Assembly (NCBI GenBank): GCA_943354745.1
Contig: CALRDB010000001.1
Span: 203-64,202, forward strand
Length of the DNA stretch: 64,000 bases
Source: Candidatus Nomurabacteria bacterium
GTDB lineage: Bacteria; Patescibacteriota; Minisyncoccia; Phycocordibacterales; UBA10002
Reading direction: 5' to 3'
The position numbers were made by a program, and so were the translations under genes. Position 1 is the stretch's first letter, and the number at the start of each line of letters is the position of its first letter. The notes below the pieces were generated by a model that did no database searches, had not been told where the DNA came from, and saw nothing but the letters and a program-made list of their open reading frames with translations. Below, in pieces: positions 26,737 through 40,698 of this stretch.

Positions 26737-27744
26737 ATGATTTTAACCCGAACACCATTTCGTCTGCCACTTGGCGGAGGCTCGACCGATTTACCCGCGT
26801 ACTTCGAAAAGCACGGGGGTTTTATTTTTGCCGTTGCCATTAATCTCTATATGTATATAGGAGTAAATCGTCCTCCAGTAGATGATTTAATTCGTCTAAA
26901 ATATCGGGATAGTGAAGAAGTCTTCAGCATCAATGATCTTAAGCATAGTATTGCCAAAGCAGCGCTTAAACGGACAGGCATTGACCGTATGGTTGAAATT
27001 TCCTCAAAGGCCGATGTTTCTGATGGTACCGGCATGGGCAGTTCGGCAAGTTATCTCATCGGACTTCTTAATGCTCTGCATACCATAAAAGGGGAGAACA
27101 TATCACGAAGACATCTTGCCGAGGAAGCCTATGAGATCGCTACTCACGATCTCGGTCTCCCAGATGGTAAACAAGATTTCTACCTTGCTTCTTTTGGAAA
27201 CTTTTGTGTACTCGACATTGCGCGAAACGGGTCAGTAACCGTCTCAAACGCGAACATTTCAAAGGCAGTCCAGACCGAATTTGAAAAACGTACCCTTCTC
27301 TTTTATACCGGAGTACGCCGATCGAGTACAGAACTTCTTAAGGATCAAGAAAAGAAACTCCGGAATAATAAAAAAGATGCTGTGGAGTTAAAGCATGAGA
27401 CAAAACGTATCGGCAAAACTATTTTAGACGTATTTGAATCAGGAAGACTCAATGAGTTCGGCCGTCTTCTTGATGAGCATTGGAAACTTAAGAGAAAAAT
27501 GTCTGCAAAGATGAGTACCGATAAGTTTGATGCACTCTATGAAAAAGCAAAAAAGGCGGGAGTGCTTGGGGGAAAGATTGTTGGCGCCGGAGGCGGAGGA
27601 TTTTTTATGGTATTTTGCAAAGACGGAAAACAAAACGCGGTCCGGAAAGTTTTTAAGAAGGAAGGAATGCGTGAGGTGTCATTTTCGGTAGATTCTGCAG
27701 GTACGCAGGTGTTGGTTAATAAACCTCGGTCACACACTCTGTAA
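26737..27744 (+). CDS. GHMP-family sugar kinase (D-glycero-D-manno-heptose 7-phosphate kinase HddA-like)
   Basis: It has PFRLPLGGGSTD and a GHMP motif (GTGMGSSASYLIGLLNAL). Confidence 0.65.
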   Translation: MILTRTPFRLPLGGGSTDLPAYFEKHGGFIFAVAINLYMYIGVNRPPVDDLIRLKYRDSEEVFSINDLKHSIAKAALKRTGIDRMVEISSKADVSDGTGMGSSASYLIGLLNALHTIKGENISRRHLAEEAYEIATHDLGLPDGKQDFYLASFGNFCVLDIARNGSVTVSNANISKAVQTEFEKRTLLFYTGVRRSSTELLKDQEKKLRNNKKDAVELKHETKRIGKTILDVFESGRLNEFGRLLDEHWKLKRKMSAKMSTDKFDALYEKAKKAGVLGGKIVGAGGGGFFMVFCKDGKQNAVRKVFKKEGMREVSFSVDSAGTQVLVNKPRSHTL

Positions 27745-27748
27745 TATA

Positions 27749-29080
27749 ATGTCTAAGAAACCACTTACCATTGGCGTGGTCGGACTCTGGCACCTCGGAA
27801 GCGTCTACGCTGCCGGTCTTGCCGAGCTTGGTCACCAGGTAGTTGGCTTCGATTCCGATGGTTCGGTTGTAAAGAAGTTTGCGAAAGGGATTCTTCCGGT
27901 TAGTGAAGAAGGTCTAAGTCAGTTAACATTGAAGAATATTAAGGCGGGAAGACTTGAGTTTACGAACAGTCTTCAAAAGCTTGCGTTATGTGATATTGTT
28001 TGGATTACAATTGACACTCCTTGCGATACGCATAACCTTCCCAATACATCTTCTATTTTGAAACTCCTCTCTTCTCTCGCACCGCTGCTAAGTAATGATG
28101 TTTCTATAATTGTTTCGAGTCAGGTCCCAGTAGGAAGCGGGGACATGCTTCGCCTCCGTATTCAAAAAGCAAATCCAACACTTCGTTTTTCGTATAGCTA
28201 TCAACCGGAGAATTTACAACTTGGGAAAGCGCGGCACAGTTTTTTTCACCCTGCGCGCATTGTGGTAGGAGTTGAAACGAAAGAAACGGAAGCACTTTTC
28301 GAAAGTATTTTTAGGAACGTTGATGCTCCAAAGCTCTATATGAGTGTTCCTTCTGCGGAGATGGTAAAGCACGCGGTAAATGCATTTCTCGCCACTTCAC
28401 TTAGTTTCATCTATGACATATCTGACATGTGCGAGGTTTTCGGCGCGGACGTGCTTCGTGTTTCCGAAGCATTGAAGAGTGATTTACGTATTGGGAAGTC
28501 CGCCTACCTTGATTCTAGTATTGGATTCTCCGGCGCGACGCTTGGTCGCGATCTCTCGGTACTTGTCGATAGGTCAAGAGAAAAGAACGTACTACTCCCG
28601 GTTATTGCTGGAGCCCGGCTTAAAAATGAAAAACGTTGGCAGATGGCACTACCCATTCTTAAAAAAGAGCTCGGAGATTTGTCTAAGGTAACTATCGGTT
28701 TTCTTGGGATTGCGTACAAGCCGGGGACGTCTACCGTGCGGGATTCGCTCTCGCTCAAACTTATGCGTACACTCTCACCTCTCGCTAAGGAAATATGTGC
28801 GCATGATCCTTTGGTTCCTAAAGAGGCGGTTCTTGCCGCGGGTCCCTATCGGTTCTGCTCCGACCCCTACAAGCTCGCACAAGGCTCATCGGCGCTTATC
28901 CTCATGACCGCCTGGCCAGAGTATAGTAAGCTTGATTTTAAGAGGATTAGGCAGAGCATGAAAGGCCCAAAGCTTTTCTTTGACGCCAAAAATGCGCTCT
29001 GGCAAGAAGAGGCTCGCATAACCGCAGCTGGCCTTCGCTACATCGGCATCGGCCGTGGACGTACTAAGGTAACATCATGA
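27749..29080 (+). CDS. Nucleotide-sugar dehydrogenase (UDP-glucose/UDP-ManNAc/UDP-GlcNAc 6-dehydrogenase family), full length
   Basis: It has an N-terminal Rossmann fold (IGVVGLWHLGSVYAAGLA) and is 443 aa including the C-terminal UDP-binding domain. Confidence 0.7.
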   Translation: MSKKPLTIGVVGLWHLGSVYAAGLAELGHQVVGFDSDGSVVKKFAKGILPVSEEGLSQLTLKNIKAGRLEFTNSLQKLALCDIVWITIDTPCDTHNLPNTSSILKLLSSLAPLLSNDVSIIVSSQVPVGSGDMLRLRIQKANPTLRFSYSYQPENLQLGKARHSFFHPARIVVGVETKETEALFESIFRNVDAPKLYMSVPSAEMVKHAVNAFLATSLSFIYDISDMCEVFGADVLRVSEALKSDLRIGKSAYLDSSIGFSGATLGRDLSVLVDRSREKNVLLPVIAGARLKNEKRWQMALPILKKELGDLSKVTIGFLGIAYKPGTSTVRDSLSLKLMRTLSPLAKEICAHDPLVPKEAVLAAGPYRFCSDPYKLAQGSSALILMTAWPEYSKLDFKRIRQSMKGPKLFFDAKNALWQEEARITAAGLRYIGIGRGRTKVTS

Positions 29081-29928
29081 GACGTGCACCTATACATGTC
29101 GTCATAACGGGAGGGACCGGAGGAATAGGTAAAGCTATTGCCTCGCGTTTTTTGCGTGAGGGTGCGGAGGTGCTCGTGGTCGCGAGGAGTGCGGGAGAAC
29201 TTGAGGCGATACGGCAAGAATTTTCAACGTATGGCAGTGCGCTTACTACGGCAATGTGTGATGTATCAAAGGCAGAGGAGGTACGTTTGCTCGGAGAAAA
29301 GATACAGGAGCGCTTCGGAGAGAAGGTCGATGTGCTCATAAATGCGGCGGGAATTTACGGTCCGAAAGACCTCCTGGAAAATACCGATGAAGAAGCGTGG
29401 AAGGAAACCCTTTTGGTGAATCTCTACGGTACAATGCTTATGACGCGGCTGGTGTTGCCGTCAATGAAGAAACAAAAAACCGGCACTATTATTAATTTCT
29501 CCGGTGGCGGAGAGGGAGCGTTCCCACGTTTTAGTGCGTACGCAGCGTCAAAAGGTGGCATTATCCGTTTCACCGAAAGTGTTGCGGAAGAGGTGCGGGA
29601 CTTCGATATTTGTATTAACGCCATCGCTCCCGGAGCGGTAAATTCGGGTCTACTCGATGAGGCAATCGGGGCAGGTCCAGAGAAGGTTGGTGACGCAACC
29701 TATCTTAAATTACTTACACAGAAGAAAGAGGGAGGTGTATCTCCCGACCTCGCCGCAGAACTTTGTGTTTTTCTCGCGCGCGACACGTCAGGTGTTACTG
29801 GTCGGGTACTGAGTGCCGTGTGGGACAAACAGAGCAGTATTCTGAAACACTCCGCCGAAATTATGAACACAGACATCTATACCTATCGGCGAATTAAACC
29901 TCAAGACCGTGGTTATGACTGGAAATAA
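29077..29928 (+). CDS. Short-chain dehydrogenase/reductase (SDR)
   Basis: It has VVITGGTGGIGKAIA and YAASKGG motifs. Confidence 0.75.
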   Translation: MRRAPIHVVITGGTGGIGKAIASRFLREGAEVLVVARSAGELEAIRQEFSTYGSALTTAMCDVSKAEEVRLLGEKIQERFGEKVDVLINAAGIYGPKDLLENTDEEAWKETLLVNLYGTMLMTRLVLPSMKKQKTGTIINFSGGGEGAFPRFSAYAASKGGIIRFTESVAEEVRDFDICINAIAPGAVNSGLLDEAIGAGPEKVGDATYLKLLTQKKEGGVSPDLAAELCVFLARDTSGVTGRVLSAVWDKQSSILKHSAEIMNTDIYTYRRIKPQDRGYDWK

Positions 29929-30922
29929 AAAATATCGCATCGCTTTAATCGGGGCCGGGCGTATGGGCGCACGGTGGGCTAGTGTTATTGCTACGTCCAA
30001 AAGCGTAGCGCTCGCGCTTGTCGTTGACAAAGACGTCTCACTCGCGGAAAAAGTGGCGAAGATGTACGGAGTAACGTCGGAAGCGGACCACCAGTTGGCT
30101 CTCCGTGACGATGTAGATGCGGTAGTTATTGTCGTACCTCACAAATTCCTCTACCCACTTGCTAAAGAGGCGCTTCTTGCGGGTAAACATGTGTTCGTCG
30201 AAAAGCCGGGGAGTAAAACGGAGGAAGAGATGCGAGAGCTGGTGCGGATTGCAAAAGAGAAACAGTGTACACTTATGGTCGGGTTCAACTATCGCTTCTT
30301 TGATTCGATTCGGCAAGTCAAAGAGATTGTTCAGAGTGGGGAGATTGGAGAAATTCACGCTATTCGAATAGTACACGGACATCCCGGACGGGTCGGTTAT
30401 GAAAAAGAGTGGCGTATGCAAAAAGATCTGGCGGGAGGCGGCGTACTTATGGACCAAGGGCTCCACGTGATTGATTTGGCGCGATGGTTTTTGGAAGATG
30501 AAGTTGTGCAGGTTTCCGGTGTGACGAGTAACGAAGTATGGAAAGCCGAGGTTGAGGACACCGCTTCTCTGGTTCTCAAAACCAGGAAAGGCAATGTCGC
30601 TTCGCTTCAGGTCAGTATTTCGGAGTGGAAGCCGGTGTTCTCGTTTCAGATGAGTGGTGAGAAGGGATCTATTTCCATAGAAGGGCTTGGCAGAAAATAC
30701 GGAAACGGAGAGAGTTTTTCCGTCGGGAACTACGACAGGAAGACGGAGAAGCTACTTGAAAGACAGATAGTGTGTGACCCTGATGCGGATAAGGCTCTCG
30801 CGCGGGAGTTTGAGGCGTTTGTAGAGGCACTCTCTGCCGGCGCGTGCGAAAATCATAGTGCGAAAGATGCATTAGAGGTTTTAAAGATTATTAATGCGGT
30901 ATACCAACAAGCGCAACTATGA
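29909..30922 (+). CDS. Gfo/Idh/MocA-family oxidoreductase
   Basis: It has KYRIALIGAGRMGARW and a C-terminal GFOR domain. Confidence 0.7.
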   Translation: MVMTGNKKYRIALIGAGRMGARWASVIATSKSVALALVVDKDVSLAEKVAKMYGVTSEADHQLALRDDVDAVVIVVPHKFLYPLAKEALLAGKHVFVEKPGSKTEEEMRELVRIAKEKQCTLMVGFNYRFFDSIRQVKEIVQSGEIGEIHAIRIVHGHPGRVGYEKEWRMQKDLAGGGVLMDQGLHVIDLARWFLEDEVVQVSGVTSNEVWKAEVEDTASLVLKTRKGNVASLQVSISEWKPVFSFQMSGEKGSISIEGLGRKYGNGESFSVGNYDRKTEKLLERQIVCDPDADKALAREFEAFVEALSAGACENHSAKDALEVLKIINAVYQQAQL

Positions 30923-31614
30923 AAGCCATCGTACTCGCAGCCGGAGAAGGAAAGCGGATGTTACCACTGACACTCACAGTGCCTAAGCCCATGCTTATGA
31001 TTGGCGGGCAGACTGTCCTTGATCATATCTTTGAAGGGTTTCCGGAAGAAATTACCGAGGCAATAATCGTGGTGCGGTATCTCGGAGAGAAGATACGGGA
31101 GTATTGCGGGGATATGTTCCATGGAAGACCAGTACGCTATGTGGAAGGGAGCGAGAAGGGAAACGCGTATAGTTTTCTTGCCGCTTCACCGTTTGTTGCG
31201 CCACAGGAGCGAGTGATGGCACTGTACGCCGATGAAATGCCGAGTCGAGAGAATATGGAGAAGTGTCTTTCTCACGAATACAGCTGGCTCGTAAAAGAAA
31301 CACTTCGTCCGAAGGCGGCAGGAGTCGTGGAGCTTCGTCCTGACGGAACCATAGAGCGTATTGTCGAGAAATCGGAGAACCCTCCTTCAAATATGGCGGC
31401 AATCGGACTTATGGTGCTCCCCGGCCCCATCTTCGCCATACAGCCCGAACAAAACCACAATGGCGAGTATTATTTTACCAGTATGGCGAACAAAATCTTT
31501 CCGAAAACGAACGTCTATGCCGTTCTGACATCCGGAGGATGCTCGCTCACCAAACCTGAGGACATACCGAAGGTGGAAGCGTTTCTTGCCACGCGAAAAA
31601 ACAATCATGTCTAG
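30919..31614 (+). CDS. Sugar-1-phosphate nucleotidyltransferase (HddC-like D-glycero-alpha-D-manno-heptose-1-P guanylyltransferase)
   Basis: It has the NTP_transferase motif MKAIVLAAGEGKRMLPLTLTVPKPM. Confidence 0.65.
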   Translation: MKAIVLAAGEGKRMLPLTLTVPKPMLMIGGQTVLDHIFEGFPEEITEAIIVVRYLGEKIREYCGDMFHGRPVRYVEGSEKGNAYSFLAASPFVAPQERVMALYADEMPSRENMEKCLSHEYSWLVKETLRPKAAGVVELRPDGTIERIVEKSENPPSNMAAIGLMVLPGPIFAIQPEQNHNGEYYFTSMANKIFPKTNVYAVLTSGGCSLTKPEDIPKVEAFLATRKNNHV

Positions 31615-32740
31615 TAAAAAAACACAATCCAAAAACGAATTGGTGCTGGTTACCGGAGGTGCCGGGTTTATCGGCGGACATCTCGTCGACGCGCTTTTGG
31701 AGCATGAATATCGGGTGCGAGTGCTCGACAACCTCGCTCCTCCGACGCATAACGGGAAGTTGCCGAAATGGTTCAACAAAGAAGCGGAGTTTCAGAAAGG
31801 AGATGTCCGGAGCAAAGAGGATTGGGAAAAAGCCCTTGATGGCGTTTCGTTTGTCTTCCATCTCGCGGCGTATATGGACTTCCATCCCGACTTCAGTACC
31901 TATATTGATACGAATGCAAAGAGTACGGCGCTTCTCTACGAGGTCATCGTTGAGAAAAAATATCCGGTTAAAAAAATTATCGTCGCATCGTCGCAGTCCG
32001 TGTATGGCGAAGGCGTCTACTCGTGCACCATGGACGGTATCGTGCATCCATTGCCCCGTAGTGAAGCACAGCTAAAAGCGGGGGAGTGGGAGATGAAATG
32101 CCCAATTGACGGTGCACCGCTTATGCCGGTCGCACAAAAAGAAACCGATCGACTCTCGCCGACTATTCCGTACGGCATTTCAAAAAAGACTTCTGAAGAG
32201 TTACTTTTCTCCCTCGGACGGCTCTACGGCATTCCTTCAGTCGCGCTCCGTTACACCATCGTACACGGCGCACGCCAGAGCTTCAGACATTTCTATTCGG
32301 GAGTGCTTCGTCAAATCGCGGTGATGGCACTCGCGGGACAACCCCTCGAACTGCACGAAGACGGGAAACAGGTACGCGACTATATAAACGTGCATGATGT
32401 GGTGGACGCGCACCTCCTTGTACTTGAGTCTCCAAAAGCCGACTTCGAAGCGTTTAACGTCGGCTCAGGACGCGCGACAAAGGTTCGTGAACTCGCAGAG
32501 ATAATCGCTACAGAAGCGGGAATTCCTGCTTTCATCAAAACGTCCGGACTCTACCGCCTTGGTGCGCCCCGGCATTCACCTTCCGATAATTCAAAACTTA
32601 AGGCGCTTGGCTGGAATCCGACGCGGACCATCGCGGACGGCGTCCGCGAGTATATTGCGTGGATTCGTCAGTTCCCTGAAGCGAAACAGTTTTTGGCAGA
32701 CACGCTGCGTACGATGAAGGAAAAGAGACTTTTACGCTAA
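31607..32740 (+). CDS. NAD-dependent epimerase/dehydratase
   Basis: It has LVTGGAGFIGGHL and YGISK motifs. I place the start at MSSKK, giving an 8-bp overlap with the previous gene. Confidence 0.7.
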   Translation: MSSKKTQSKNELVLVTGGAGFIGGHLVDALLEHEYRVRVLDNLAPPTHNGKLPKWFNKEAEFQKGDVRSKEDWEKALDGVSFVFHLAAYMDFHPDFSTYIDTNAKSTALLYEVIVEKKYPVKKIIVASSQSVYGEGVYSCTMDGIVHPLPRSEAQLKAGEWEMKCPIDGAPLMPVAQKETDRLSPTIPYGISKKTSEELLFSLGRLYGIPSVALRYTIVHGARQSFRHFYSGVLRQIAVMALAGQPLELHEDGKQVRDYINVHDVVDAHLLVLESPKADFEAFNVGSGRATKVRELAEIIATEAGIPAFIKTSGLYRLGAPRHSPSDNSKLKALGWNPTRTIADGVREYIAWIRQFPEAKQFLADTLRTMKEKRLLR

Positions 32741-32749
32741 TTTTTTACT

Positions 32750-33286
32750 ATGTCAGAAAGAAAACGAGCCGTATTTTTTGACCGTGACGGAGTGATTCTC
32801 ATGGCCATCGTGATGGACGGAAGACCTCGTCCGGCGCGTAGCATTGCCGAATACAAGGCGCTCTCCGGCATTATGCCCGGTGCGAAAGAAGCGGTGGAAA
32901 AAGTGAAAGCCGCCGGTTTTCTTGCATTTCTCATTTCCAACCAGCCGGATATTGCTTACGGTGTTATTTCAAAAGCGGAATGGCAATGGATTCAGGACCA
33001 GACCAAAGACATTCCGTTTGACGATATTTTTATCTGTTTTCATCGGAGGGACGATAACTGTGACTGCATGAAGCCGAAACCGGGGAAACTGCTGGAAGCC
33101 GCGGAAAAATGGAATGTAGATCTTGCCCGTTCGTTTCTGGTGGGGGATACCAAGGACGACGTCGCAGCAGCAAAGAATGCTGGGTGCAAGAGCGTCCTTC
33201 TTGACGCTCCGTACAACAGGGAAATAGAGAGTGACATGAAGATTCAATCACTGATCGAACTTTTAGGTACCCTGCGGGAGTTTTAG
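32750..33286 (+). CDS. gmhB: D-glycero-D-manno-heptose 1,7-bisphosphate phosphatase
   Basis: It has HAD motif I (FFDRDGVI) and the GmhB zinc motif CFHRRDDNCDCMKPKPG. Confidence 0.75.
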   Translation: MSERKRAVFFDRDGVILMAIVMDGRPRPARSIAEYKALSGIMPGAKEAVEKVKAAGFLAFLISNQPDIAYGVISKAEWQWIQDQTKDIPFDDIFICFHRRDDNCDCMKPKPGKLLEAAEKWNVDLARSFLVGDTKDDVAAAKNAGCKSVLLDAPYNREIESDMKIQSLIELLGTLREF

Positions 33287-33395
33287 TTGGAGCAACAGTA
33301 TCTATCGAGGCCATCTAGGCTAAGACATCTCTTTCCATTGTTAATTTGTGAGGGTGAGTATACAATTTCTTAGGTCCATGCGGAGTTATAGAGTC

Positions 33396-34112
33396 ATGAT
33401 AACGGTTACGAAGTTAAAGGTGAAGATTTTTGCTGATGGGGCGGAAAAGGCCTCCATGTTAGACATGTCTGCAAAACCCTTTATTAAGGGATTTACGACA
33501 AATCCAACACTGATGAGAAAGGGGGGTGTGAATAATTATGCTGAATTCGCAAAAGAAATTCTCGCTTCCATTAAAGATCGGCCAATTTCTTTTGAAGTCT
33601 TTTCAGATGATTTTACTGAGATGGAACGGCAAGCAAGGGTAATCGCCTCGTGGGGGAAAAATGTGTATGTGAAGATTCCCATTACGAATACAAAAGGTGT
33701 GTCATCCCTTCCGCTCGTTATGAGACTTACTGCGAGTGGAATTAAAGTGAATGTCACGGCAATTCTTACTTTGGCGCAGGTTCAAGCAACCGTCAAAGTT
33801 CTTTCGCCACACGTTGCATCTGTCGTCTCAGTCTTTGCTGGACGCATTGCGGATACCGGAGTTGATCCTGTTCCACTTATGAAGAAGTCGAAGACACTTC
33901 TTTTGAAAAATAAAAAGGCGGAACTTCTCTGGGCAAGTACACGAGAGGTCTTTAATATTATGCAGGCAGAAAACGTTGGATGTCACATTGTGACCGTTTC
34001 GAATGATATCTTGAAAAAACTCGATAAATGGGGGTACGACTTGGAAAGACTTTCGCTCGATACAGTGAGAATGTTTTATGAAGATGGAAAACAAGCAGGA
34101 TACAGTTTGTAA
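33396..34112 (+). CDS. Transaldolase/fructose-6-phosphate aldolase family
   Basis: It has KIFADGAEKA...GFTTNPTLM. I place the start at MITVTKLKV; the ORF listed from 33348 is an extension. Confidence 0.7.
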   Translation: MITVTKLKVKIFADGAEKASMLDMSAKPFIKGFTTNPTLMRKGGVNNYAEFAKEILASIKDRPISFEVFSDDFTEMERQARVIASWGKNVYVKIPITNTKGVSSLPLVMRLTASGIKVNVTAILTLAQVQATVKVLSPHVASVVSVFAGRIADTGVDPVPLMKKSKTLLLKNKKAELLWASTREVFNIMQAENVGCHIVTVSNDILKKLDKWGYDLERLSLDTVRMFYEDGKQAGYSL

Positions 34113-34124
34113 CGTTAGCCTAGT

Positions 34125-34690
34125 TATTTTAATAAGCCCAATTCAAATCCCCCGACTCTGTCGGGGGATGTAGGGGCGTCCAGACGACACCTCGTCATGC
34201 TAGACTGTCCCAATGCGGTTTCGGAAAAGTAGCCACGCAGTATATAAAACGGAGTATCACGTCGTCTGGACTCCTCGATATCGGAGAAAGATATTCGTAC
34301 CCGGTGTACGCACCTATGTTGAAAAACTCATCGGACATCTCGATGGGCTCGACCCCGATATCGAGGTAGTAAAGGTGAACGCGCCCCTCGACCACGTGCA
34401 TATGGTCATTGTCATCCCGCCGAGAGCTTCAGTTGCCGAGGTCATGCAGTTCATCAAATCTCAAACTGGGAAACTACTTAAGGCGAGATTTCCTTTTCTC
34501 CACAAAACGTTCTATGCTAAGGAAGGCATCTGGTTGCGAGGTTACTGTGTGTCCACCGTAGGACTTAATGAAAAGGAAATCCTCGCTTACGTCAGCTACC
34601 AAGACCGCGAAGACAGGGGGCAACTGAAGCTCGACCTCAAGTAGCGGGTCGGGGAAGCCACCAGCTCTGCTGGTGGAGATTCACTTGATC
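34125..34690 (+). mobile_element. IS200/IS605-family insertion sequence (tnpA only)
   Basis: A Y1 HUH transposase ORF is flanked by subterminal hairpins: CCCCCGACTCTGTCGGGGG on the left and CCACCAGCTCTGCTGGTGG on the right. Confidence 0.7.
34213..34644 (+). CDS. tnpA: IS200-like transposase TnpA (Y1/HUH)
   Basis: It has the HUH motif HVHMVIVIPP and the catalytic Tyr region YAKEGIWLRGYCVSTVG, and is 143 aa. Confidence 0.85.
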   Translation: MRFRKSSHAVYKTEYHVVWTPRYRRKIFVPGVRTYVEKLIGHLDGLDPDIEVVKVNAPLDHVHMVIVIPPRASVAEVMQFIKSQTGKLLKARFPFLHKTFYAKEGIWLRGYCVSTVGLNEKEILAYVSYQDREDRGQLKLDLK

Positions 34691-34715
34691 TAAAGAATGC
34701 TGAAATACTCAATCT

Positions 34716-34775
34716 CAATTAGGAATTTAAAAGTTAGGATTCCCTTAAAATAATTAGTGCACTTAGGAATTAGTA
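34716..34775 (+). promoter_or_regulatory. Three direct TTAGGA(A/T)T repeats upstream of gmhA, next to the IS200 right end
   Basis: The words ttaggaatt, ttaggattc and ttaggaatt occur in turn, followed by agTATAATttttt 11 nt before the ATG. Confidence 0.35.
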
Positions 34776-34788
34776 TAATTTTTTCACT

Positions 34789-35400
34789 ATGTATTTACCA
34801 TATATAGAACAATATCTCGCTGAGACAAAGAGAATCGTCGATGGACTTGATCACGCCTCTATTGAACGAATGATTGAGATCCTAAAATCAGTACGTGATG
34901 TTCGTGGAAGATTGTTTATTCTCGGTGTTGGTGGTGGAGCAGGACATGCAAGCCACGCTGTAAATGATTTTCGCAAAATTGCCGGTATCGAGGCGTATAC
35001 ACCTATGGACAATATTTCGGAGTTTTCAGCCCGGGTAAACGATGATGGGTGGGAGAGTGTCATGTCTAACTGGCTAAAGGGAAGTTTCCTTTCCGCTAAG
35101 GACGCAATACTTGTTTTCTCAGTTGGTGGTGGAAATGCAGAGAAAAAAATAAGTCTTAATATTGTCGAAGGCGTACGATACGCAAAGGAAGTCGGCGCAA
35201 AAATACTTGGTATTGTTGGACGGGACGGTGGGTATACCAAGCAAGTTGCAGACGCCTGTGTAGTTGTACCGACAGTGAACACCGAAACCGTGACGCCGCA
35301 CACTGAAAGCTTTCAGGCTGTGGTATGGCACCTTATTGTTAGTCATCCCCTCTTTTTGAAACAAAAAGGGAAGTGGGAATCTATCGAACAGACAACATAA
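34789..35400 (+). CDS. gmhA: Phosphoheptose isomerase (sedoheptulose-7-P isomerase, SIS domain)
   Basis: It has SIS motifs GRLFILGVGGGAGHASH and ILVFSVGGGNAEKKISLN. Confidence 0.75.
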   Translation: MYLPYIEQYLAETKRIVDGLDHASIERMIEILKSVRDVRGRLFILGVGGGAGHASHAVNDFRKIAGIEAYTPMDNISEFSARVNDDGWESVMSNWLKGSFLSAKDAILVFSVGGGNAEKKISLNIVEGVRYAKEVGAKILGIVGRDGGYTKQVADACVVVPTVNTETVTPHTESFQAVVWHLIVSHPLFLKQKGKWESIEQTT

Positions 35401-35403
35401 AGA

Positions 35404-36294
35404 CTACGACTTTTTCTCCCCTATGTAGTAAATTATAGCGGACACCTCAATGGAGCGCGGAAAGAGATAAAAAATAAGATCAAGGAATCGAAGGGGTGAT
35501 AGAACGGCCATAAAGAAATACGTAGCGACGTTGTACATCGCTTCGGAAATTATTGAGAAAGGTAGCGCAAAAAAGTACATAAGTAATGTAACCAACGCTG
35601 AAGCTGGACCACCCAAGGCTCCTATTTTTTTCGGGGTAAAGTCGTAAAACTGTTGTTTCAATCCCTCGTGGGTGAGTCGTGTGTAATCGTTCGGTGATGC
35701 ATGGAACGGGACAAGAAAGGGGATACTTATATACACAAAGCCACCAGGTCTCACGACGCGTCGCATTTCCTTTATCACCTTCTCAAAGTTAGGCGTGTGT
35801 TCAATGGTGGATTCGGAAATGATCATATCCACAGAATTGTCTTTAAAGGGGAGTGTTGCTGCGTCCGCCACGATGTCTACATTTTTAAAGGGGAAAATAT
35901 CAAGATTAATAACGTCCGGATGGACTCGTGTAATTCCAGAACCTATATTAATAAGTATCTTTTCCTCTGACCGATCACCGAAAACCTTTCTAATTGTCTT
36001 GTTCGGTTTTTGTCCCAAATAAGAAATATTACCTATCGCGTACGTGAGGAATACAAAAAGTGAAGGCCATTTCTTAATGAACGCTTTTAAAAGATTTATG
36101 AATGTACCCGCTTCTTTAGTATATCGCTGGATAGTGCCGTCATCTGAAGAGGTGAAATGTAGTGCAGAATTCTTGATTGGGTAGAGGGCGCGACACGTGG
36201 GACAGTGCATCCCATTTTCGGCGGATAACATGTTCTTACTTGCACATTGTGGGCAAGAAAGTATCTCGGTAAATGTCTTCGCGTGTATGTTCAT
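35404..36294 (-). CDS. SAM-dependent methyltransferase with N-terminal zinc ribbon and C-terminal membrane helix
   Basis: It has CPQCAS...CPTC, INIGSGITRVHPDVINLD and VRPGGFVYISIP motifs. Confidence 0.6.
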   Translation of the reverse strand: MNIHAKTFTEILSCPQCASKNMLSAENGMHCPTCRALYPIKNSALHFTSSDDGTIQRYTKEAGTFINLLKAFIKKWPSLFVFLTYAIGNISYLGQKPNKTIRKVFGDRSEEKILINIGSGITRVHPDVINLDIFPFKNVDIVADAATLPFKDNSVDMIISESTIEHTPNFEKVIKEMRRVVRPGGFVYISIPFLVPFHASPNDYTRLTHEGLKQQFYDFTPKKIGALGGPASALVTLLMYFFALPFSIISEAMYNVATYFFMAVLSPLRFLDLIFYLFPRSIEVSAIIYYIGEKKS

Positions 36295-36350
36295 ATTCCT
36301 TCAAAATAAGTAACTTTACAAGTATACGGCATCAGCCTACAATGTAAAAT

Positions 36351-38132
36351 GTGGCACCTTTTTTCAAGAAACATGTAGTAGCGATAGTGTTCGCTTGCGT
36401 AATAGGTGCAATCTACGGACTACCCAACGTCCTATTTGTTCTGTCTTTGGGGGATGTCTATCAAGGTATCCCGATGATGCAAACACCAAATGAAGATGCG
36501 TATTTGGCTCGGATTCAAGAAATTCTCGATGGTCATCCTACGCTCGGTTCACCCTATTTTTTCGAATACAAAGAACAGTGGCCGATTACTCCTCCAACGG
36601 GTGAATTCTTTTACGCGCTTCCTAGTTTGTTGTTCAATCTTTCTACTTCGACCGTTTTGATAGTGAGTAAATTTATTTTACCCGCGATATTATTTTTCTT
36701 AGTTTATTTACTCGTGTTACGTCTTACGGGGGAGGAGGACATATTCAAGAAAAGTAATGCAATTGTGGGCGGTGCATGGGTCGTTCTTGGCTATGACCTC
36801 ATTGATTATCGAACTGTTTTCTCGTATCTCTTGGGGACCATCTCACCTGAATCATTTCTACTCTGGGCGCGGCCGGTTAACCCAATTCTCGGTGCTCTAT
36901 TTTTGTTTTCTTTTTTATTGTTCGTGTTGGCACTTGTCCAAAATACGAAATGGAAAAAGAGCACACTTATTGGGGCGGCCGTTTTTCTCGCACTTATGTT
37001 CGGGAGTTACTTTTTTAGTTGGGGTCTGGCGCTTTCGATTCTCGTCATGCTCGTTGTGATCTGTCTTTTTTCCAGAGAGTATGAGGTTGCGAGGACGCTT
37101 GCGCTCATTGCTCCCTTAGGTGTTTTATTCGCAGCCCCTTATTGGTATGTCGTGTGGCACGCGAGTCAAAGCCCTTGGTACGAAGCGTCGGTGCTTCGAA
37201 GTGGTCTTTTTTTAACGCATTATCCACTTCTCAACAAACTCCTCCTTGTCACCTTTGCGCTCTACCTCACTGTATTGTTTGCTGATCTTTTGTGGAAGCG
37301 AAACAAACATATTGAATATCGCTTCGAGATCTGGCATCGGTTTACGCTCGCTCTTTTGCTTGGAGGTCTATGGGTTTACAGCCAGCAAATGCTGACGGGT
37401 CGGACTCTTTGGCCGTATCATTTCGTCCAATACACCATCCCACTTTCTATGGTGGTCTGCATGGTCTTGCTTTATAACGTTGTACGAAAATGGAGTTATC
37501 TCGTTTGGTCGGCGATGGTTGGTATAATTGCCGTATCGTCCATGTGCTTTGGTGTCTACACACAAGTAAGTACATACAGAGGTTCCTACGCCCGTTACGC
37601 GCACATACAAGGCTATGCACCCTTGTTTGCGTGGCTTAACGAACAAAAGAAAGACTGCGTCGTGCTCCAAATTGACTCTGAGACAGGCATTGGAGGTCTT
37701 GATGTGGCCATCCCCGCCTTTACACATTGTAATTTGTATAATTCAGCAACCGCACCTTCGCTTTTACCAGAGGAACGAATTTGGCATAATTACTTTGTCC
37801 GCCTTTTTATGAACGGGGTTACTCCAGCGACACTTACCTCATATCTAGATGGTCATCTTTCTGAAGAGCGCACGTATCTTTCTTCTAACTGGAAAGGAAT
37901 CTTCGGTGTCAGAGAATTTCCGGACTTTAGTGACCCCTTATTGGCAAAACGGCTCATGATGGTACCCGAAAAATACCGAGAATTTTTCGGGAAAGAAATT
38001 GTAGCAGAGCTCAAAACATATCGTCTCGACTTTATCGTATCTGTTGGTCCTTTGGCGGAAATGGTTAAGAAGCGGTTGCCGGGTGTTACGCTAGTACAAT
38101 CATTTAATGACGTGCTTCTCTATAAGCTTTAA
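36351..38132 (+). CDS. Large polytopic membrane protein (possible GT-C glycosyltransferase or polymerase)
   Basis: It is 593 aa with more than ten transmembrane helices and a C-terminal soluble domain; I see no recognisable catalytic motif. Confidence 0.35.
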   Translation: MAPFFKKHVVAIVFACVIGAIYGLPNVLFVLSLGDVYQGIPMMQTPNEDAYLARIQEILDGHPTLGSPYFFEYKEQWPITPPTGEFFYALPSLLFNLSTSTVLIVSKFILPAILFFLVYLLVLRLTGEEDIFKKSNAIVGGAWVVLGYDLIDYRTVFSYLLGTISPESFLLWARPVNPILGALFLFSFLLFVLALVQNTKWKKSTLIGAAVFLALMFGSYFFSWGLALSILVMLVVICLFSREYEVARTLALIAPLGVLFAAPYWYVVWHASQSPWYEASVLRSGLFLTHYPLLNKLLLVTFALYLTVLFADLLWKRNKHIEYRFEIWHRFTLALLLGGLWVYSQQMLTGRTLWPYHFVQYTIPLSMVVCMVLLYNVVRKWSYLVWSAMVGIIAVSSMCFGVYTQVSTYRGSYARYAHIQGYAPLFAWLNEQKKDCVVLQIDSETGIGGLDVAIPAFTHCNLYNSATAPSLLPEERIWHNYFVRLFMNGVTPATLTSYLDGHLSEERTYLSSNWKGIFGVREFPDFSDPLLAKRLMMVPEKYREFFGKEIVAELKTYRLDFIVSVGPLAEMVKKRLPGVTLVQSFNDVLLYKL

Positions 38133-38136
38133 GAGT

Positions 38137-39126
38137 ATGGATATAGTTAAGAAAAAATTACGACAAGTGCTCTCTTTTAATAAACCAATTCAGGCTCTCA
38201 TTGAGGGAGTCGTTCTGGTTTACCTGCTCCAAAAGACAAAAAACAATATTGAAGACAATAAGAATAGACATATACGAGTTCGGATACTTAGGCGCGGAAT
38301 CGAGAAATTAAAAAAGGCAATGTCGGATGTTCATTACAAACAGGGAATCCTCATTGTAGGCGAAGAAGCCTACGCGTCTTTTGAAGGCATTTTCCTCAAT
38401 GTTCGCGGTACGAACCGGTATCTTAAAGTGACAGGGGATGCTTTTGGTAACGAAGGGAAGCCGATACTTGATTTTCTGCGCTCAAAAGGAGTCGAGGTTG
38501 GTACAATGATTGATCTAGGAGCTAACTTTGGGGAGATAAGTTTGTACATGAGTAAACAGTATCCGCGTGCGAAGATTTTGGCTGTTGAGGCGTCGCCAGA
38601 TAATTTCCGACTTTTGGAATCAAATATTCATTTCCAGCAATTTTCCACCGTGAATCTCTCGCTTCTTTGTGAAGCTGTGAGTGATCGAAAGGGTTTCGTA
38701 GAGATAACTAAGGGAGTAAATCCTGAAAACATCATCGCGCACCCCAGCATCCATCTTAAGGAATCAGATCTTGGGAAAAAGATAGAAACAGTCCGCGTCC
38801 CCTCTGACACACTGGAGTCAATCATGTCCCGTTTTAACTTTACCACGCTCGATTTCCTGAAGGTTGATATCGAGGGTTCTGAGCCACTCCTCTTTGAATC
38901 ACTTCGAATGTGCGCTCGAAAGATTCGAGCCATACTCATTGAGGTGGGGGATAAGGCGGATCACCACACGTACCTTCCGCTTATGCGGTTTTTATTCGCG
39001 GAATATCATGTAGCCTACGATGCTGGGACAGGAAGCAAATGGACATCATTTGAATCGTTTGAAAAAAGTATGTTATCTTCATATGCACAGGATATTTGGT
39101 TTGTTCGGGAAGAGAAGAAACTTTAA
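38137..39126 (+). CDS. FkbM-family methyltransferase
   Basis: It has DLGANFGEISLYM and LKVDIEGSE motifs. I place the start at MDIVKKK, after the stop of the previous gene. Confidence 0.65.
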   Translation: MDIVKKKLRQVLSFNKPIQALIEGVVLVYLLQKTKNNIEDNKNRHIRVRILRRGIEKLKKAMSDVHYKQGILIVGEEAYASFEGIFLNVRGTNRYLKVTGDAFGNEGKPILDFLRSKGVEVGTMIDLGANFGEISLYMSKQYPRAKILAVEASPDNFRLLESNIHFQQFSTVNLSLLCEAVSDRKGFVEITKGVNPENIIAHPSIHLKESDLGKKIETVRVPSDTLESIMSRFNFTTLDFLKVDIEGSEPLLFESLRMCARKIRAILIEVGDKADHHTYLPLMRFLFAEYHVAYDAGTGSKWTSFESFEKSMLSSYAQDIWFVREEKKL

Positions 39127-39181
39127 GACCGCTTTTTGAGTTACAAGTTGGTACTATGGGCATTTCTAGCAGATTGTACGT

Positions 39182-40303
39182 ATGGAACAGAACATAAAGA
39201 AAACAAAATTGGCCTCCTCCCGCAAAGGTAAAAAGGCACTCCTTACCGGAGTAACGGGGCAGGATGGTTCGTATCTCGCCGAACTACTTTTAGAAAAAGG
39301 GTATGAAGTGTATGGCCTCCAGCGGCGTGCCAGTATGCCGAATACCTTTCGTGTGGACCATCTCACTGGCGAAAAAAATGGGGACCGTTTTTTTATGACA
39401 TACGCCGACCTCTCTGACAGCTCAAATCTGCTTCGTGTCATTAATAAAGTACAACCCGATGAAATTTACAACATTGGCGCGCAGAGCCATGTGGGCGTGA
39501 GCTTTGATATCCCCGAATACACCGCGAACATTAATGCACTCGGTCCACTGCGGATTCTCGAAGTCCTTAGGAACCTCCACCTTCCCGCAAAATTTTATCA
39601 AGCAAGCTCTTCTGAAATGTTTGGTGACGTACTTGAAACACCTCAGAAGGAAACGACGCCATTCAATCCGCAGTCGCCGTACGGTCTTTCAAAAGTATTT
39701 GCGTTCCATATCACGAAAATTTTTCGTACCGGATACGGTATTTTCGCCTCCAATGGAATTCTCTTCAATCATGAGTCGCCACGGCGTGGATTCAACTTCG
39801 TAACTCGTAAAATCACCCTTGGCCTTTCCCGCATCAAGCTCGGTCTCTCGGGAGAACTGCATTTGGGAAATCTTGATGCGAAGCGGGATTGGGGCTTTTC
39901 TAAAGATTACGTGGAAGCAATTTGGTTGATTTTGCAGCATGAAAAGCCGGATGATTTCGTTATTGCGACGGGGGAAACGCACTCGGTCCGCGAGTTTGTT
40001 GTGGAAGCAGGGAAGCATCTTGGTATGGATATTGAGTGGAAAGGATCAGGTATTAAGGAGATTGGCATTGACTGTAAAACAGGGAAGACAGTTATTCGGA
40101 TTGATCCACAATATTTCAGACCGAATGAGGTCAATTTTCTGCAAGGTGACTCCTCAAAAGCGCGGAAAATGCTCGGCTGGAATCCGAAGACAACTTTTAG
40201 TGCCCTTGCCAAACTAATGGCGGAAGAAGATTTGCATTACGTTGAGCGTGAATCATCGCTTGGACGGCAGGATGTTTCGGCACGAAAGTTCTCCGTGAAG
40301 TAA
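39182..40303 (+). CDS. gmd: GDP-mannose 4,6-dehydratase family (possibly a GDP-manno-heptose 4,6-dehydratase)
   Basis: It has [27 protein letters not shown] and [11 protein letters not shown], the classic GMD motifs. Confidence 0.8.
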
Positions 40304-40317
40304 GTCGGTCTCACAAA

Positions 40318-40698
40318 ATGGAACATATCAGTTACAAAGGAGAACTTGTCGCAATACTCATTCGTTCCTATTCGCATGGGTCACATCCTGTTACGGCTCC
40401 CGGGGAAGTGTTACAGATGATGACAATTAAGCGCGAAGCGGGGGAGAAAGTGACACCGCACCTCCATGTTCCTCGGGAAAGAATAACCGACCGTCTTTCA
40501 GAGTGTTTAGTTGTTCAAAAAGGAAGAATTAAGGTCAGTCTCTATGGAGATGACGTAGGGCCATTTACCGTGGTGGAAGTAAGGGAGGGGGAGGCCATTT
40601 ATATCCGTTCTGGCGGTCATGCCGTTCAGTATCTTGAACCGACTGAGATACTAGAGTTCAAAAACGGACCGTATGAAGACGATAAAAGAATGATCTAA
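40318..40698 (+). CDS. Cupin-domain protein (possible sugar epimerase/isomerase)
   Basis: It is 126 aa with a two-His cupin core (VTPHLHVPRERITDRLSECLVVQKGRIKVSLYGDD) and sits immediately after the GMD-like gene. Confidence 0.4.
   Translation: MEHISYKGELVAILIRSYSHGSHPVTAPGEVLQMMTIKREAGEKVTPHLHVPRERITDRLSECLVVQKGRIKVSLYGDDVGPFTVVEVREGEAIYIRSGGHAVQYLEPTEILEFKNGPYEDDKRMI

Follow-up and report, generated by a model that had tools for sequence, protein, structure and literature searches.

A putative octose-type sugar cassette and a separate Gmd module in a glycan-biosynthesis island of a Candidatus Nomurabacteria bacterium

Which activated sugars does a dense group of sugar-nucleotide genes in a Candidatus Nomurabacteria contig provide, and do these genes form one pathway or several? 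The window analysed here, a stretch of 64,000 nucleotides of contig CALRDB010000001.1, carries a glycan-biosynthesis island of approximately 60 kb. An initial annotation had read positions 26737 to 40698 as one route, in which the genes for a GDP-activated heptose are followed by a dehydratase, a cupin and two SDR proteins, leading to a 6-deoxyheptose. The genes that it named were all found at or near the positions it gave, with strong family matches, but it had overlooked a nucleotide-sugar dehydrogenase, a classical SDR, a Gfo/Idh/MocA oxidoreductase, a transaldolase and an IS200 transposase. These five genes are interleaved among the named ones in a tightly packed, operon-like arrangement from 26737 to 35400.

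Our best reading is that the stretch consists of two independent modules. Module A (26737-35400) is a conserved cassette of nine genes, encoding a transaldolase, a SIS isomerase, a GHMP kinase, a HAD-IIIA phosphatase, a short nucleotidyltransferase, an extended-SDR epimerase, a dehydrogenase of the UGDH type lacking its catalytic cysteine, a Gfo/Idh/MocA oxidoreductase and a classical SDR; the GT2 gene at 25761 is probably attached to it. Four of the overlooked genes (transaldolase, Cys-less dehydrogenase, SDR and Gfo) belong to the conserved core and point to a different, lincosamide-like pathway. Judged by its enzyme families, this widespread and so far uncharacterised cassette is closer to the pathway for the eight-carbon sugar of lincomycin than to the classical heptose pathway. 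We consider the chances about even that module A supplies surface glycans with a sugar of the NDP-octose type, which may be 8-deoxy, with module B as a separate, Gmd-dependent 6-deoxyhexose route.

Activation enzymes and transaldolase

The activation logic proposed initially, in which a ketose-phosphate isomerase, an anomeric kinase, a phosphatase and a nucleotidyltransferase give an NDP-activated higher-carbon sugar, remains reasonable for the cassette, apart from its 6-deoxyheptose end product. The labels HddA-like, gmhA and HddC-like hold only at the superfamily level, and all four proteins fall far short of the cut-offs of the NCBIfam equivalog models. The GHMP sugar-phosphate anomeric kinase (26737..27744, +; Pfam GHMP_kinases_N and C), counterpart of HddA and LmbP, scored 147 bits against the HddA model, the cut-off of which is 600, and its best solved relatives are the heptose-7-phosphate kinases 3K85, 4N3O and 4USK (126-136 bits). 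The SIS-domain ketose-phosphate isomerase (34789..35400, +; Pfam SIS_2 at threshold), distantly GmhA-like and corresponding to the isomerase domain of LmbN, reached 44 bits for a gmhA cut-off of 209. Its sole solved relatives are GmhA structures, at 37 bits or less, and many cassettes carry a SIS gene that shares 50-75% identity with it. The HAD-IIIA phosphatase (32750..33286, +), of the GmhB type and counterpart of GmhB and LmbK, passed the domain models TIGR01656 and TIGR01662 and scored 96 bits against the GmhB model (cut-off 178). It carries a DxDGV motif and, as CFHRRDDNCDC, the GmhB-type zinc motif C-x-H-x5-C-x-C, which the initial annotation had correctly noticed. For the short sugar-1-phosphate nucleotidyltransferase (30919..31614, +; Pfam NTP_transferase), counterpart of HddC and LmbO, the HddC model gave 37 bits (cut-off 300) and the best model was the archaeal GlmU N-terminal domain, with 128 bits; short NTP_transferases of a divergent type were found in cassettes L066, L091-L093 and L095.

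The short transaldolase (33396..34112, +; TIGR02134, 322 bits for a cut-off of 282), counterpart of LmbR, is dedicated to the cassette and is predicted to assemble the ketose phosphate by forming its C-C bond. The three homologues examined in transaldolase-anchored loci, which share 66-69% identity, are all located in this type of cassette. The spacer between the transaldolase and SIS genes is occupied by an IS200/IS605 element, which stands outside the pathway (transposase at 34213..34644, +; Pfam Y1_Tnp, NCBIfam transpos_IS200 with 104 bits for a cut-off of 55); in L066 and L091-L093 the two genes are directly adjacent.

A heptose as the substrate is fully compatible with these data, since among solved structures the kinase is nearest to heptose-7-phosphate kinases and the phosphatase has the zinc motif of GmhB. 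The transaldolase would then boost sedoheptulose-7-phosphate, and divergent analogues of GmhA, HddA, GmhB and HddC would convert it to NDP-D-glycero-D-manno-heptose. The dehydrogenase, Gfo, SDR and epimerase would act at C6 or C4, for example inverting the configuration through 6-oxidation followed by reduction, or forming a keto or branched derivative, and Gmd would be separate. This alternative, which we regard as possible but rather doubtful, is also favoured by the solved relatives of the SIS protein and by a GT9 heptosyltransferase-family gene adjoining the cassette in L066. Moreover, TIGR02134 is by its NCBIfam name a plain transaldolase, so that the cassette enzyme could simply form sedoheptulose-7-phosphate; the family also holds transaldolases of Staphylococcus, presumably housekeeping ones. 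Against it, all four activation enzymes fall far under the curated cut-offs, and a transaldolase is part of no canonical heptose cluster in the literature searched. The transaldolase is furthermore retained in the cassette even when the genome encodes a complete pentose-phosphate pathway, as in Rhizobium jaguaris and a Legionella MAG. The four redox and epimerase enzymes exceed the needs of any known C6 modification of heptose, and the sole characterised pathway with exactly this enzyme set makes an octose.

Tailoring enzymes and conservation of the cassette

The LmbL counterpart (27749..29080, +) belongs to the UDP-glucose/GDP-mannose dehydrogenase family, with all three Pfam UDPG_MGDP_dh domains, but lacks the catalytic cysteine: where UGDH structures read GYGGSCFPKD in the alignment, it reads GFSGATLGRD. 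Thr264 is conserved in at least 90% of 26 homologues, and among 83 related loci the position of the catalytic cysteine holds Thr in 81, His in two and Cys in none. The enzyme is predicted to carry out a single-step oxidation of the sugar side chain. As it cannot form a uronic acid, it fits the lincosamide pathway, which makes none.

Its stop codon is overlapped by 4 nt by the start of the classical, FabG-like SDR (29077..29928, +; Pfam adh_short, E = 2e-50), and the two are fused in the 706-708-aa proteins P0057, P0076 and P0085. This SDR is predicted to be the terminal keto-reductase, in the slot of the lincosamide aminotransferase LmbS. The Gfo/Idh/MocA oxidoreductase that follows (29915..30922, +; Pfam GFO_IDH_MocA and C-terminal domains), the LmbZ counterpart, has no relative above 96 bits among solved structures; in 33 of 35 loci it sits directly 3' of these two genes. 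The LmbM counterpart is an extended-SDR epimerase (31607..32740, +; Pfam Epimerase, E = 2e-42), whose 377 aa include an insertion of approximately 50 aa. It has the GxxGxxG and YxxxK motifs, its GDP_Man_Dehyd match is split in two, and it falls below the cut-offs of the GalE, RmlB and ADP-heptose 6-epimerase models.

Co-occurrence was determined in 35 related, dehydrogenase-anchored loci with full flanks. The dehydrogenase was accompanied by Gfo and by an extended SDR (two subtypes) in 33 loci each, by the classical SDR in 29, the GHMP kinase in 28, the transaldolase in 26 and the SIS protein in 25. At least 587 species carry the cassette, among them the cultured Rhizobium jaguaris and Lawsonia intracellularis. 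The SDR is absent from some variants of the cassette (L009) and the dehydrogenase from others (L091), so that the tailoring chemistry varies.

As transaldolases can use a range of aldose phosphates, another class of product may be envisaged: a nonose, with a hexose phosphate as the acceptor, or a non-glycan metabolite such as a small-molecule natural product. The Lawsonia cassette, flanked by very large hypothetical proteins and not by classical Wzx/Wzy genes, would agree with this. However, most loci embed the cassette among GT2, GT4, Wzx, Wzy and Bac_transf genes, and the nonose route has no precedent; we therefore judge such products improbable.

The Gmd module and neighbouring glycan genes

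The dehydratase gene (39182..40303, +) had been taken for a heptose dehydratase. Its product passes the GDP-mannose 4,6-dehydratase equivalog TIGR01472 (503 bits for a cut-off of 415), scores 405-429 bits with solved GDP-mannose dehydratases (E. coli, human and others) but 107 bits with the one heptose enzyme compared, the C. jejuni GDP-heptose 4,6-dehydratase 7US5, and contains GxxGxxG, SSE and YGLSK motifs. By these similarities it is a bona fide Gmd, in a module separate from the cassette, an outcome that the initial annotation had itself named as counting against its prediction. True Gmd was found near the cassette in three of the 35 loci and the cupin in none, and the nearest relative has neither, so that the two are not co-inherited with the proposed heptose genes.

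The cupin (40318..40698, +; 126 aa), suggested earlier to be a 3,5-epimerase, is a small metallo-cupin of the WbuC family. It has a metal-binding motif, unlike RmlC-type epimerases, and its fold matches do not discriminate an epimerase from a ketoisomerase or dioxygenase. Its substrate may be the 4-keto-6-deoxy sugar that Gmd produces. The two SDRs invoked, at 15290 and 31607, are indeed both extended SDRs, but the former (15290..16156, +), 23 kb upstream of Gmd, has as its best solved relative the GDP-6-deoxy-D-lyxo-4-hexulose reductase (Rmd) 2PK3 (121 bits, E = 6e-34), followed by the GDP-6-deoxy-D-mannose reductase 6X3B. It probably serves as the C4 reductase that works with Gmd, and its similarity to Rmd fits a product of the GDP-D-rhamnose type. 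Genes for ManB and ManC, which would supply Gmd, are absent from the window. Module B would comprise Gmd and the WbuC-type cupin, probably together with the Rmd-like SDR, as an ordinary route from GDP-mannose to a 6-deoxyhexose of the D-rhamnose type, possibly O-methylated afterwards.

The original proposal, a dehydratase of the DdahA/WcbK/DmhA type, a cupin 3,5-epimerase and both SDRs as C4 reductases giving a GDP-6-deoxyheptose that is later O-methylated, would also leave the transaldolase, the dehydrogenase, the classical SDR and Gfo with no role. With the identity of Gmd, its independence from the cassette and the type of the cupin, this leaves the prediction unsupported, and we consider it highly improbable.

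Directly 5' of the cassette, and outside the positions covered by the initial annotation, lies an ArnC/GtrB-like GT2 (25761..26687, +; Pfam Glycos_transf_2) with C-terminal membrane helices (hydrophobic segment at residues 223-291); it reached 194 bits with the NCBIfam model for undecaprenyl-phosphate Ara4FN transferase, the cut-off of which is 529. Homologues with 53-83% identity adjoin the cassette in Patescibacteria loci L008, L011, L015, L018, L021, L094 and others; it is probably a polyprenyl-phosphate glycosyltransferase taking the cassette product. On the other side are a class I SAM methyltransferase (35404..36231, -; Pfam Methyltransf_11 and related), with C-terminal membrane helices (hydrophobic segments in residues 224-278) and a homologue of 57% identity in L010, and a 593-aa polytopic membrane protein (36351..38132, +) matching no Pfam or NCBIfam family. 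The latter has at least eight hydrophobic segments in residues 1-406 and then a soluble tail of approximately 185 aa. In L018 and L021, homologues of 39-42% identity lie close to the cassette, and we regard the protein as a candidate GT-C-type glycosyltransferase or polymerase. An FkbM-family methyltransferase follows (38137..39126, +; Pfam Methyltransf_21, TIGR01444 with 81 bits for a cut-off of 38). GtrA-like and PMT_2 (GT-C) genes are also present in the island.

Proposed octose pathway and comparison with known systems

From the likeness of the cassette to the lincosamide GDP-octose pathway we infer that the sugar has eight carbons and not seven, and likewise which substrates and which nucleotide are used and what the final product is. 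In such a scheme, the transaldolase would transfer a C3 unit from fructose-6-phosphate or sedoheptulose-7-phosphate to a pentose phosphate, yielding octulose 8-phosphate, which the SIS enzyme would isomerise to the aldose. The GHMP kinase would phosphorylate C1, the HAD phosphatase would remove the terminal phosphate, and the nucleotidyltransferase would form the NDP-octose. Remodelling of the side chain would fall to the epimerase, the dehydrogenase and Gfo, as it does to LmbM, LmbL and LmbZ by epimerisation and 6,8-dehydration. The classical SDR would then reduce the keto group so formed, at the point where LmbS would transaminate it, to give a sugar of the NDP-8-deoxy-octose type with no amino group, which the ArnC-like GT2 may load onto polyprenyl phosphate for a surface glycan.

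The classical heptose pathway (GmhA/HddA/GmhB/HddC) shares with the cassette its four-step logic and protein superfamilies, most visibly in the phosphatase zinc motif and the HddA-type relatives of the kinase. It differs by the equivalog scores given above, and the cassette adds an integral, dedicated transaldolase and four tailoring oxidoreductases. In the 6-deoxyheptose pathways of C. jejuni (DdahA/B/C), Yersinia (DmhA/DmhB) and Burkholderia (WcbK), genes for higher-sugar activation likewise have an SDR 4,6-dehydratase, SDR reductases and a cupin as neighbours, but here the dehydratase is a true Gmd, the cupin is of the WbuC type and neither has a conserved linkage to the cassette. Module B resembles the GDP-D-rhamnose pathway (Gmd and Rmd) of Pseudomonas aeruginosa and of the A. 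thermoaerophilus S-layer glycan in its equivalog-level Gmd and the SDR nearest to Rmd, although this reductase is distant in position and modest in score, ManB/ManC are missing from the window and an extra cupin follows Gmd. The membrane-anchored GT2, together with the GtrA-like and PMT_2 genes, recalls the ArnC/ArnT and GtrB/GtrA polyprenyl-phosphate systems, except that the donor sugar is here a putative one and the 593-aa membrane protein matches no family.

The closest parallel is the lincosamide pathway (LmbR/N/P/K/O/M/L/Z of Streptomyces lincolnensis and, in S. caelestis, CcbR to CcbS), to which eight enzyme families match one to one (transaldolase, SIS, GHMP kinase, HAD phosphatase, short nucleotidyltransferase, extended-SDR epimerase, UGDH-family dehydrogenase and Gfo/Idh/MocA), a match at the level of Pfam family and protein length, the lengths being similar. 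The cassette differs by having a classical SDR in place of the PLP aminotransferase LmbS, by an isomerase and an oxidoreductase free of carrier-protein fusions, by a longer epimerase (377 aa, compared with 325 aa for CcbM), and by its location among glycosyltransferases, Wzx and Wzy rather than in an antibiotic cluster.

Gene content of the region between 25.7 and 41.9 kb

On the forward strand, an almost gapless run of genes extends from 25.7 to 41.9 kb; families were assigned to them using the Pfam and NCBIfam models. An ArnC-like GT2 glycosyltransferase (25761-26687) is followed by a GHMP kinase (26737-27744), a protein of the UDP-glucose/GDP-mannose-dehydrogenase family (27749-29080), a classical SDR (29077-29928), a Gfo/Idh/MocA oxidoreductase (29915-30922), a short NTP_transferase (30919-31614), an extended-SDR epimerase (31607-32740), a HAD-IIIA phosphatase (32750-33286), a transaldolase (33396-34112), an IS200/IS605 transposase (Y1_Tnp, 34213-34644) and a SIS-domain protein (34789-35400). 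Beyond a methyltransferase gene on the reverse strand (35404-36231) lie, again in forward orientation, the genes of a polytopic membrane protein of 593 aa without a family match (36351-38132), an FkbM methyltransferase (38137-39126), a GMD-family dehydratase (39182-40303), a 126-aa protein placed in the WbuC cupin family by the HMM match of its relatives (40318-40698) and a GT4 glycosyltransferase (40711-41892). Several starts overlap the upstream stop by 4-8 nt, so that the run looks like an operon. The genes from the kinase to the SIS protein are referred to below as the cassette. The transposase gene sits in the spacer between the transaldolase and SIS genes, which touch each other in most related cassettes, and the contig of one MAG assembly of the same genome ends at this site.

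The initial annotation had read this region as a GDP-heptose pathway, extended by the GMD homologue, the cupin and two SDRs to a GDP-6-deoxyheptose. All the genes that it named are present, including the GmhB-type zinc motif of the HAD phosphatase (CFHRRDDNCDC); the dehydrogenase, the classical SDR, the Gfo oxidoreductase, the transaldolase and the IS element were left out. The heptose enzymes hold at the superfamily level only, since the kinase, SIS, HAD and nucleotidyltransferase proteins all miss the equivalog cut-offs. The GHMP kinase scores 147 bits against the HddA model NF049969 (cut-off 600), and 126-136 bits against solved HddA-type kinase structures. For the SIS protein the GmhA model TIGR00441 gives 44 bits (cut-off 209) and solved GmhA structures at most 37 bits; by these scores it has only the SIS fold in common with GmhA. 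The HAD phosphatase passes the HAD-IIIA domain models and has the CxHx5CxC motif, and falls short of two GmhB models (96 vs 178 and 76 vs 150 bits). The octose phosphatase CcbK of the celesticetin pathway is likewise GmhB-like (PMC4351081 S1). The nucleotidyltransferase reaches 37 bits with the HddC model NF049965 (cut-off 300), in a match confined to its first 80 residues. The transaldolase passes TIGR02134 with 322 bits (cut-off 282), a family with presumed housekeeping transaldolases among its members.

The GMD-family dehydratase passes the Gmd equivalog TIGR01472 (503 bits, cut-off 415) and carries the motifs GxxGxxG, SSE and YGLSK. Solved GDP-mannose 4,6-dehydratases from bacteria, a virus and human score 405-429 bits against it, and the C. 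jejuni GDP-heptose 4,6-dehydratase 7US5 scores 107 bits. This speaks against its proposed role as a heptose 4,6-dehydratase: it groups with the GDP-mannose dehydratases, the very outcome that the initial annotation had set against its own proposal, in a comparison where 7US5 was the sole heptose enzyme, Yersinia DmhA and Burkholderia WcbK lying outside it. The extended SDR at 15290-16156 has as its top solved relative the GDP-6-deoxy-D-lyxo-4-hexulose reductase Rmd (2PK3, 121 bits), and the SDR at 23820 is UDP-glucuronate-decarboxylase-like. Gmd together with an Rmd-like reductase is the standard logic of GDP-D-rhamnose synthesis, and this module is an ordinary one; neither ManB nor ManC, which would feed Gmd, is encoded within the 64-kb window. 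For the cupin, a word-based search gave 3 relatives and exhaustive HMMER 1259. In an alignment of 40 members, the WbuC cupin model is matched by 38 and an RmlC-type model by none. His48 never varies in this alignment, and conservation of His50 and Glu62 reaches 90% or more; the invariance of His101 extends to the three close homologues only.

Conservation and distribution of the cassette

Homologues of the cassette dehydrogenase come nearly all from Patescibacteria MAGs, the nearest ones from Parcubacteria and Giovannonibacteria; on these nearest homologues rests the probable assignment of the window to Patescibacteria. Three distant homologues (42-52% identity) lie in the same gene set. The first is found in the order GT2, nucleotidyltransferase, GHMP, dehydrogenase, SDR, Gfo, epimerase, SIS, HAD, transaldolase; the second in the order SIS, transaldolase, HAD, GHMP, dehydrogenase, Gfo, epimerase, nucleotidyltransferase, GT2; and the third in the order nucleotidyltransferase, dehydrogenase::SDR fusion, Gfo, epimerase, GT2 and then GHMP.

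Co-occurrence was evaluated by tblastn of the window proteins against 35 dehydrogenase loci having at least 7 kb on either side. The Gfo oxidoreductase and the extended SDR were each found in 33 of the 35 loci, the classical SDR in 29, the GHMP kinase in 28, the transaldolase in 26, the SIS isomerase in 25 and the HAD phosphatase in 20. The complete cassette was confirmed in about half of these best-flanked loci; the divergent nucleotidyltransferase is under-detected by tblastn, and Pfam finds one in loci L066, L091-L093 and L095. In the reverse direction, three transaldolase homologues (66-69% identity) chosen only for their long contigs all lie inside the same cassette, which has GT2, Wzx, Wzy and Bac_transf genes on its flanks. 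Of the 35 loci, 3 have a true Gmd (at least 45% identity) and none has the cupin. L094, the closest relative (dehydrogenase 76% identical), retains the cassette along with its upstream synteny and has neither Gmd nor cupin nearby. The flagged region therefore consists of two modules, a cassette co-inherited across loci and an unrelated Gmd module rarely or never near it, and the supposed linkage of the dehydratase with heptose-activation genes falls away. A Gmd-dependent 6-deoxyheptose pathway, with a dehydratase at the Gmd equivalog level and no conserved linkage of Gmd or cupin to the cassette, appears very improbable.

A genome scan, querying one genome per species with the dehydrogenase-family alignment, yielded at least 587 loci (species representatives). 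The best 80 of these belong to Patescibacteria, Chloroflexota, Acidobacteriota, Elusimicrobia, Nitrospiraceae, Lentisphaerota, Ignavibacteria, Bacillota, one Legionella MAG and two archaea; Streptomyces is absent among these best 80. A full cassette (GHMP, SIS, HAD, Gfo, SDR, transaldolase, dehydrogenase and extended SDR) is present in a Nitrosopumilaceae MAG (L048), which indicates inter-domain transfer or bin contamination; at the Micrarchaeota locus a full cassette was not seen. Full cassettes also lie on plasmid 3 of Lawsonia intracellularis (L095, NC_008014.1, ~14.5-23 kb) and on pRCCGE525c of Rhizobium jaguaris CCGE525 (L096, NZ_CP032695.1, ~969.6-990.9 kb), a replicon of 2.58 Mb listed as a plasmid in PLSDB. 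RefSeq names in the Lawsonia cassette are generic (SIS domain-containing protein, HAD-IIIA hydrolase, transaldolase, nucleotide sugar dehydrogenase, SDR, Gfo/Idh/MocA, galactokinase and nucleotidyltransferase), and its flanks encode two hypothetical proteins of ~1090 aa and a GH99-like protein. Both species are named cultivable or cell-culturable hosts and could serve as experimental systems.

The surrounding glycan island

All 64 kb of the window form a glycan island with many GT2 and GT4 genes, PMT_2 GT-C proteins, two KpsS/C-like proteins, two sets of nonulosonic-acid genes and an ABC exporter. MAG assemblies from ENA and NCBI contain the same contig. Immediately upstream of the cassette, in the window and in Patescibacteria relatives, is an ArnC-like GT2 with membrane helices, and GtrA-like and PMT_2 (GT-C) genes and the family-less 593-aa membrane protein lie near it in the window. 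Together these genes suggest that the cassette sugar is transferred via a polyprenyl-phosphate carrier. In phyla other than Patescibacteria the cassette is found within Wzx/Wzy loci.

The nonulosonic-acid sets occupy 44168-63126 and comprise NeuB, a UDP-GlcNAc 2-epimerase-like protein, CMP-transferases, DegT aminotransferases, PseB/LegB-like dehydratases and a formyltransferase, with a HisF/HisH-like pair and a 394-aa protein without Pfam match beside them; the ABC exporter and the second Capsule_synth (KpsS/C-like) gene are in the same interval. The combination with the HisF/HisH-like pair and the 394-aa protein points to legionaminic or pseudaminic-type acids with acetimidoyl or formyl substituents as products. 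At least 12 SAM methyltransferases, FkbM, Methyltransf_13/14 and membrane-anchored types among them, are packed unusually densely into 8980-25708 and 35404-39126, and an asparagine-synthase-like amidotransferase is encoded at 9676-11571; heavy O-methylation or amidation of the island glycan is probable. At 14-889, the first ORF in the window encodes PKD and lamin-tail (LTD) domains, as is typical for secreted or surface proteins, and its product is a possible glycosylation target beside the island.

Two further ORFs seem to be incomplete. A second UDPG_MGDP_dh-family ORF of 304 aa (6395-7309) has the N-terminal and central domains and lacks the C-terminal UDP-binding domain, and may be a truncated gene or pseudogene; together with the UXS-like SDR (23820-24896) it would otherwise suggest a UDP-xylose route. 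A 153-aa ORF on the reverse strand (41909-42370), with the GT4 gene on one side and a KpsS/C-like gene on the other, matches an IS256-family (Zn-variant) transposase model only in the N-terminal zinc-binding segment and the last ~90 positions, and looks like an internally deleted IS remnant.

Predicted chemistry and comparison with the lincosamide octose pathway

Where UDP-glucose dehydrogenase (UGDH) structures have the catalytic-Cys motif GYGGSCFPKD, the cassette dehydrogenase reads GFSGATLGRD in the alignment. In 26 homologues gathered with no regard to the motif, Thr at the catalytic-Cys position shows conservation of 90% or more. Among 83 loci, 81 have Thr here, 2 have His and none has Cys; the genome scan itself used the motif as one of its two search patterns. 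The two-step oxidation by UGDH to a uronic acid needs a thiol to form the thiohemiacetal and thioester intermediates. Lacking it, the cassette enzyme is more likely a single-step dehydrogenase, and the name UDP-glucose 6-dehydrogenase currently given to this subfamily is wrong. In some relatives the dehydrogenase is fused to the classical SDR (706-708 aa; proteins P0057, P0076 and P0085, and locus L010 at 4186-6306), which argues that the two enzymes act consecutively. Two Woesebacteria loci (L009 and L024) have His instead of Thr ('GFSGGHLDRD') and lack the classical SDR; their tailoring chemistry may differ. A WbpA/WbpB-type route to UDP-GlcNAc(3N)A was considered for the dehydrogenase and Gfo pair and rejected, because the catalytic Cys is absent, the cassette lacks an aminotransferase or acetyltransferase, and the two genes lie among those of the kinase, isomerase and transaldolase and are inherited together with them.

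The lincosamide sugar branch comprises the LmbR transaldolase, LmbN isomerase, LmbP kinase, LmbK phosphatase, LmbO guanylyltransferase, LmbM epimerase, LmbL dehydrogenase, LmbZ NAD(P) oxidoreductase and LmbS aminotransferase (PMC12945683 Table 1; PMC4351081 Table 2), and LmbM, LmbL, CcbZ and CcbS turn GDP-octose into GDP-D-alpha-D-lincosamide (PMC12945683). Besides this lincomycin/celesticetin branch, we found no other characterised pathway with the enzyme set of the cassette, and full-text searches of the literature found no prior description of the cassette. LmbR reportedly transfers the C3 unit of fructose-6-P or sedoheptulose-7-P to ribose-5-P, giving octulose-8-P, which LmbN is said to convert to octose-8-P; 6-epimerisation, 6,8-dehydration and 4-epimerisation by LmbM/L/Z reportedly all precede transamination.

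By the same logic, the cassette transaldolase would produce a ketose phosphate, with octulose-8-P favoured and sedoheptulose-7-P as the alternative, and the SIS isomerase would convert it to the aldose phosphate. Phosphorylation at C1 by the GHMP kinase, removal of the terminal phosphate by the HAD phosphatase and activation by the nucleotidyltransferase would then give an NDP-sugar. Its side chain could be remodelled by the epimerase, the Cys-less dehydrogenase and the Gfo enzyme, and the leftover keto group reduced by the classical SDR, resulting in an NDP-8-deoxy-octose-type sugar.

The first intermediate is where a heptose-based cassette would part from an octose-based one. Eight carbons are favoured because the transaldolase is integral to the cassette by the forward and reverse tests, and because it is kept there in organisms with a complete pentose-phosphate pathway. 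Two non-orthologous subtypes of both transaldolase and SIS fill the same slots, the entire tailoring set corresponds to that of the lincosamides, and the searched literature holds no transaldolase in any heptose cluster, all of which point the same way. On these grounds we give the octose-type reading about an even chance. A seven-carbon cassette is possible, if somewhat doubtful: its kinase and phosphatase resemble heptose enzymes most, TIGR02134 is named simply transaldolase and has presumed housekeeping members, a GT9 heptosyltransferase-family gene adjoins one cassette (L066), and the comparison with the Lmb proteins is one of family and length.

To our knowledge, transaldolase-built aldo-octoses occur only in lincosamide antibiotics. 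If the same enzyme logic holds in the cassette, a whole class of eight-carbon surface sugars has been overlooked, and if the octose reading is true, the evolutionary source of the lincosamine pathway is identified. Even a heptose product would leave a large, coherent nucleotide-sugar pathway without annotation, its parts named 'galactokinase', 'transaldolase' and 'SIS domain-containing protein' in RefSeq. The presence of the cassette in a pig pathogen (Lawsonia) and in a culturable Rhizobium makes the question directly testable.

The cassette was compared with the Lmb/Ccb proteins (ABX00607-ABX00615, GQ844764) by family and length; Ccb/Lmb accessions, lengths and identities are given in the supplement of PMC4351081. 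A dedicated operon transaldolase in the role of LmbR is shared, occurring in 26/35 dehydrogenase-anchored and 3/3 reverse-anchored loci. The N, P, K and O families are all represented, at the family level, with lengths near those of CcbN, P, K and O, and the M, L and Z trio (extended SDR, UGDH-family and Gfo/Idh/MocA) corresponds to the most conserved core of the cassette. The difference lies in the last step. A search for a hidden DegT-type aminotransferase gene found none inside the cassette, whether in the window or across 83 related loci; the closest such gene is at least 5.7 kb away, and where the lincosamide pathway has the PLP aminotransferase LmbS, the cassette has the classical SDR. 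Judged from gene content, the cassette may well be a lincosamide-type nucleotide-sugar pathway for surface glycans ending in a reductase rather than an aminotransferase, a reading for and against which the balance is close to equal where eight carbons are concerned. More tentatively, and taking all its parts jointly, we propose that the cassette yields an NDP-8-deoxy-octose, the hydroxyl analogue of lincosamine; that this sugar would be a common, unseen C8 unit of surface glycans in hundreds of mostly uncultivated bacterial and some archaeal lineages as well as in R. jaguaris and L. intracellularis; and that the lincomycin/celesticetin sugar branch might have been recruited from such an ancestral glycan pathway by replacing the reductase with an aminotransferase.
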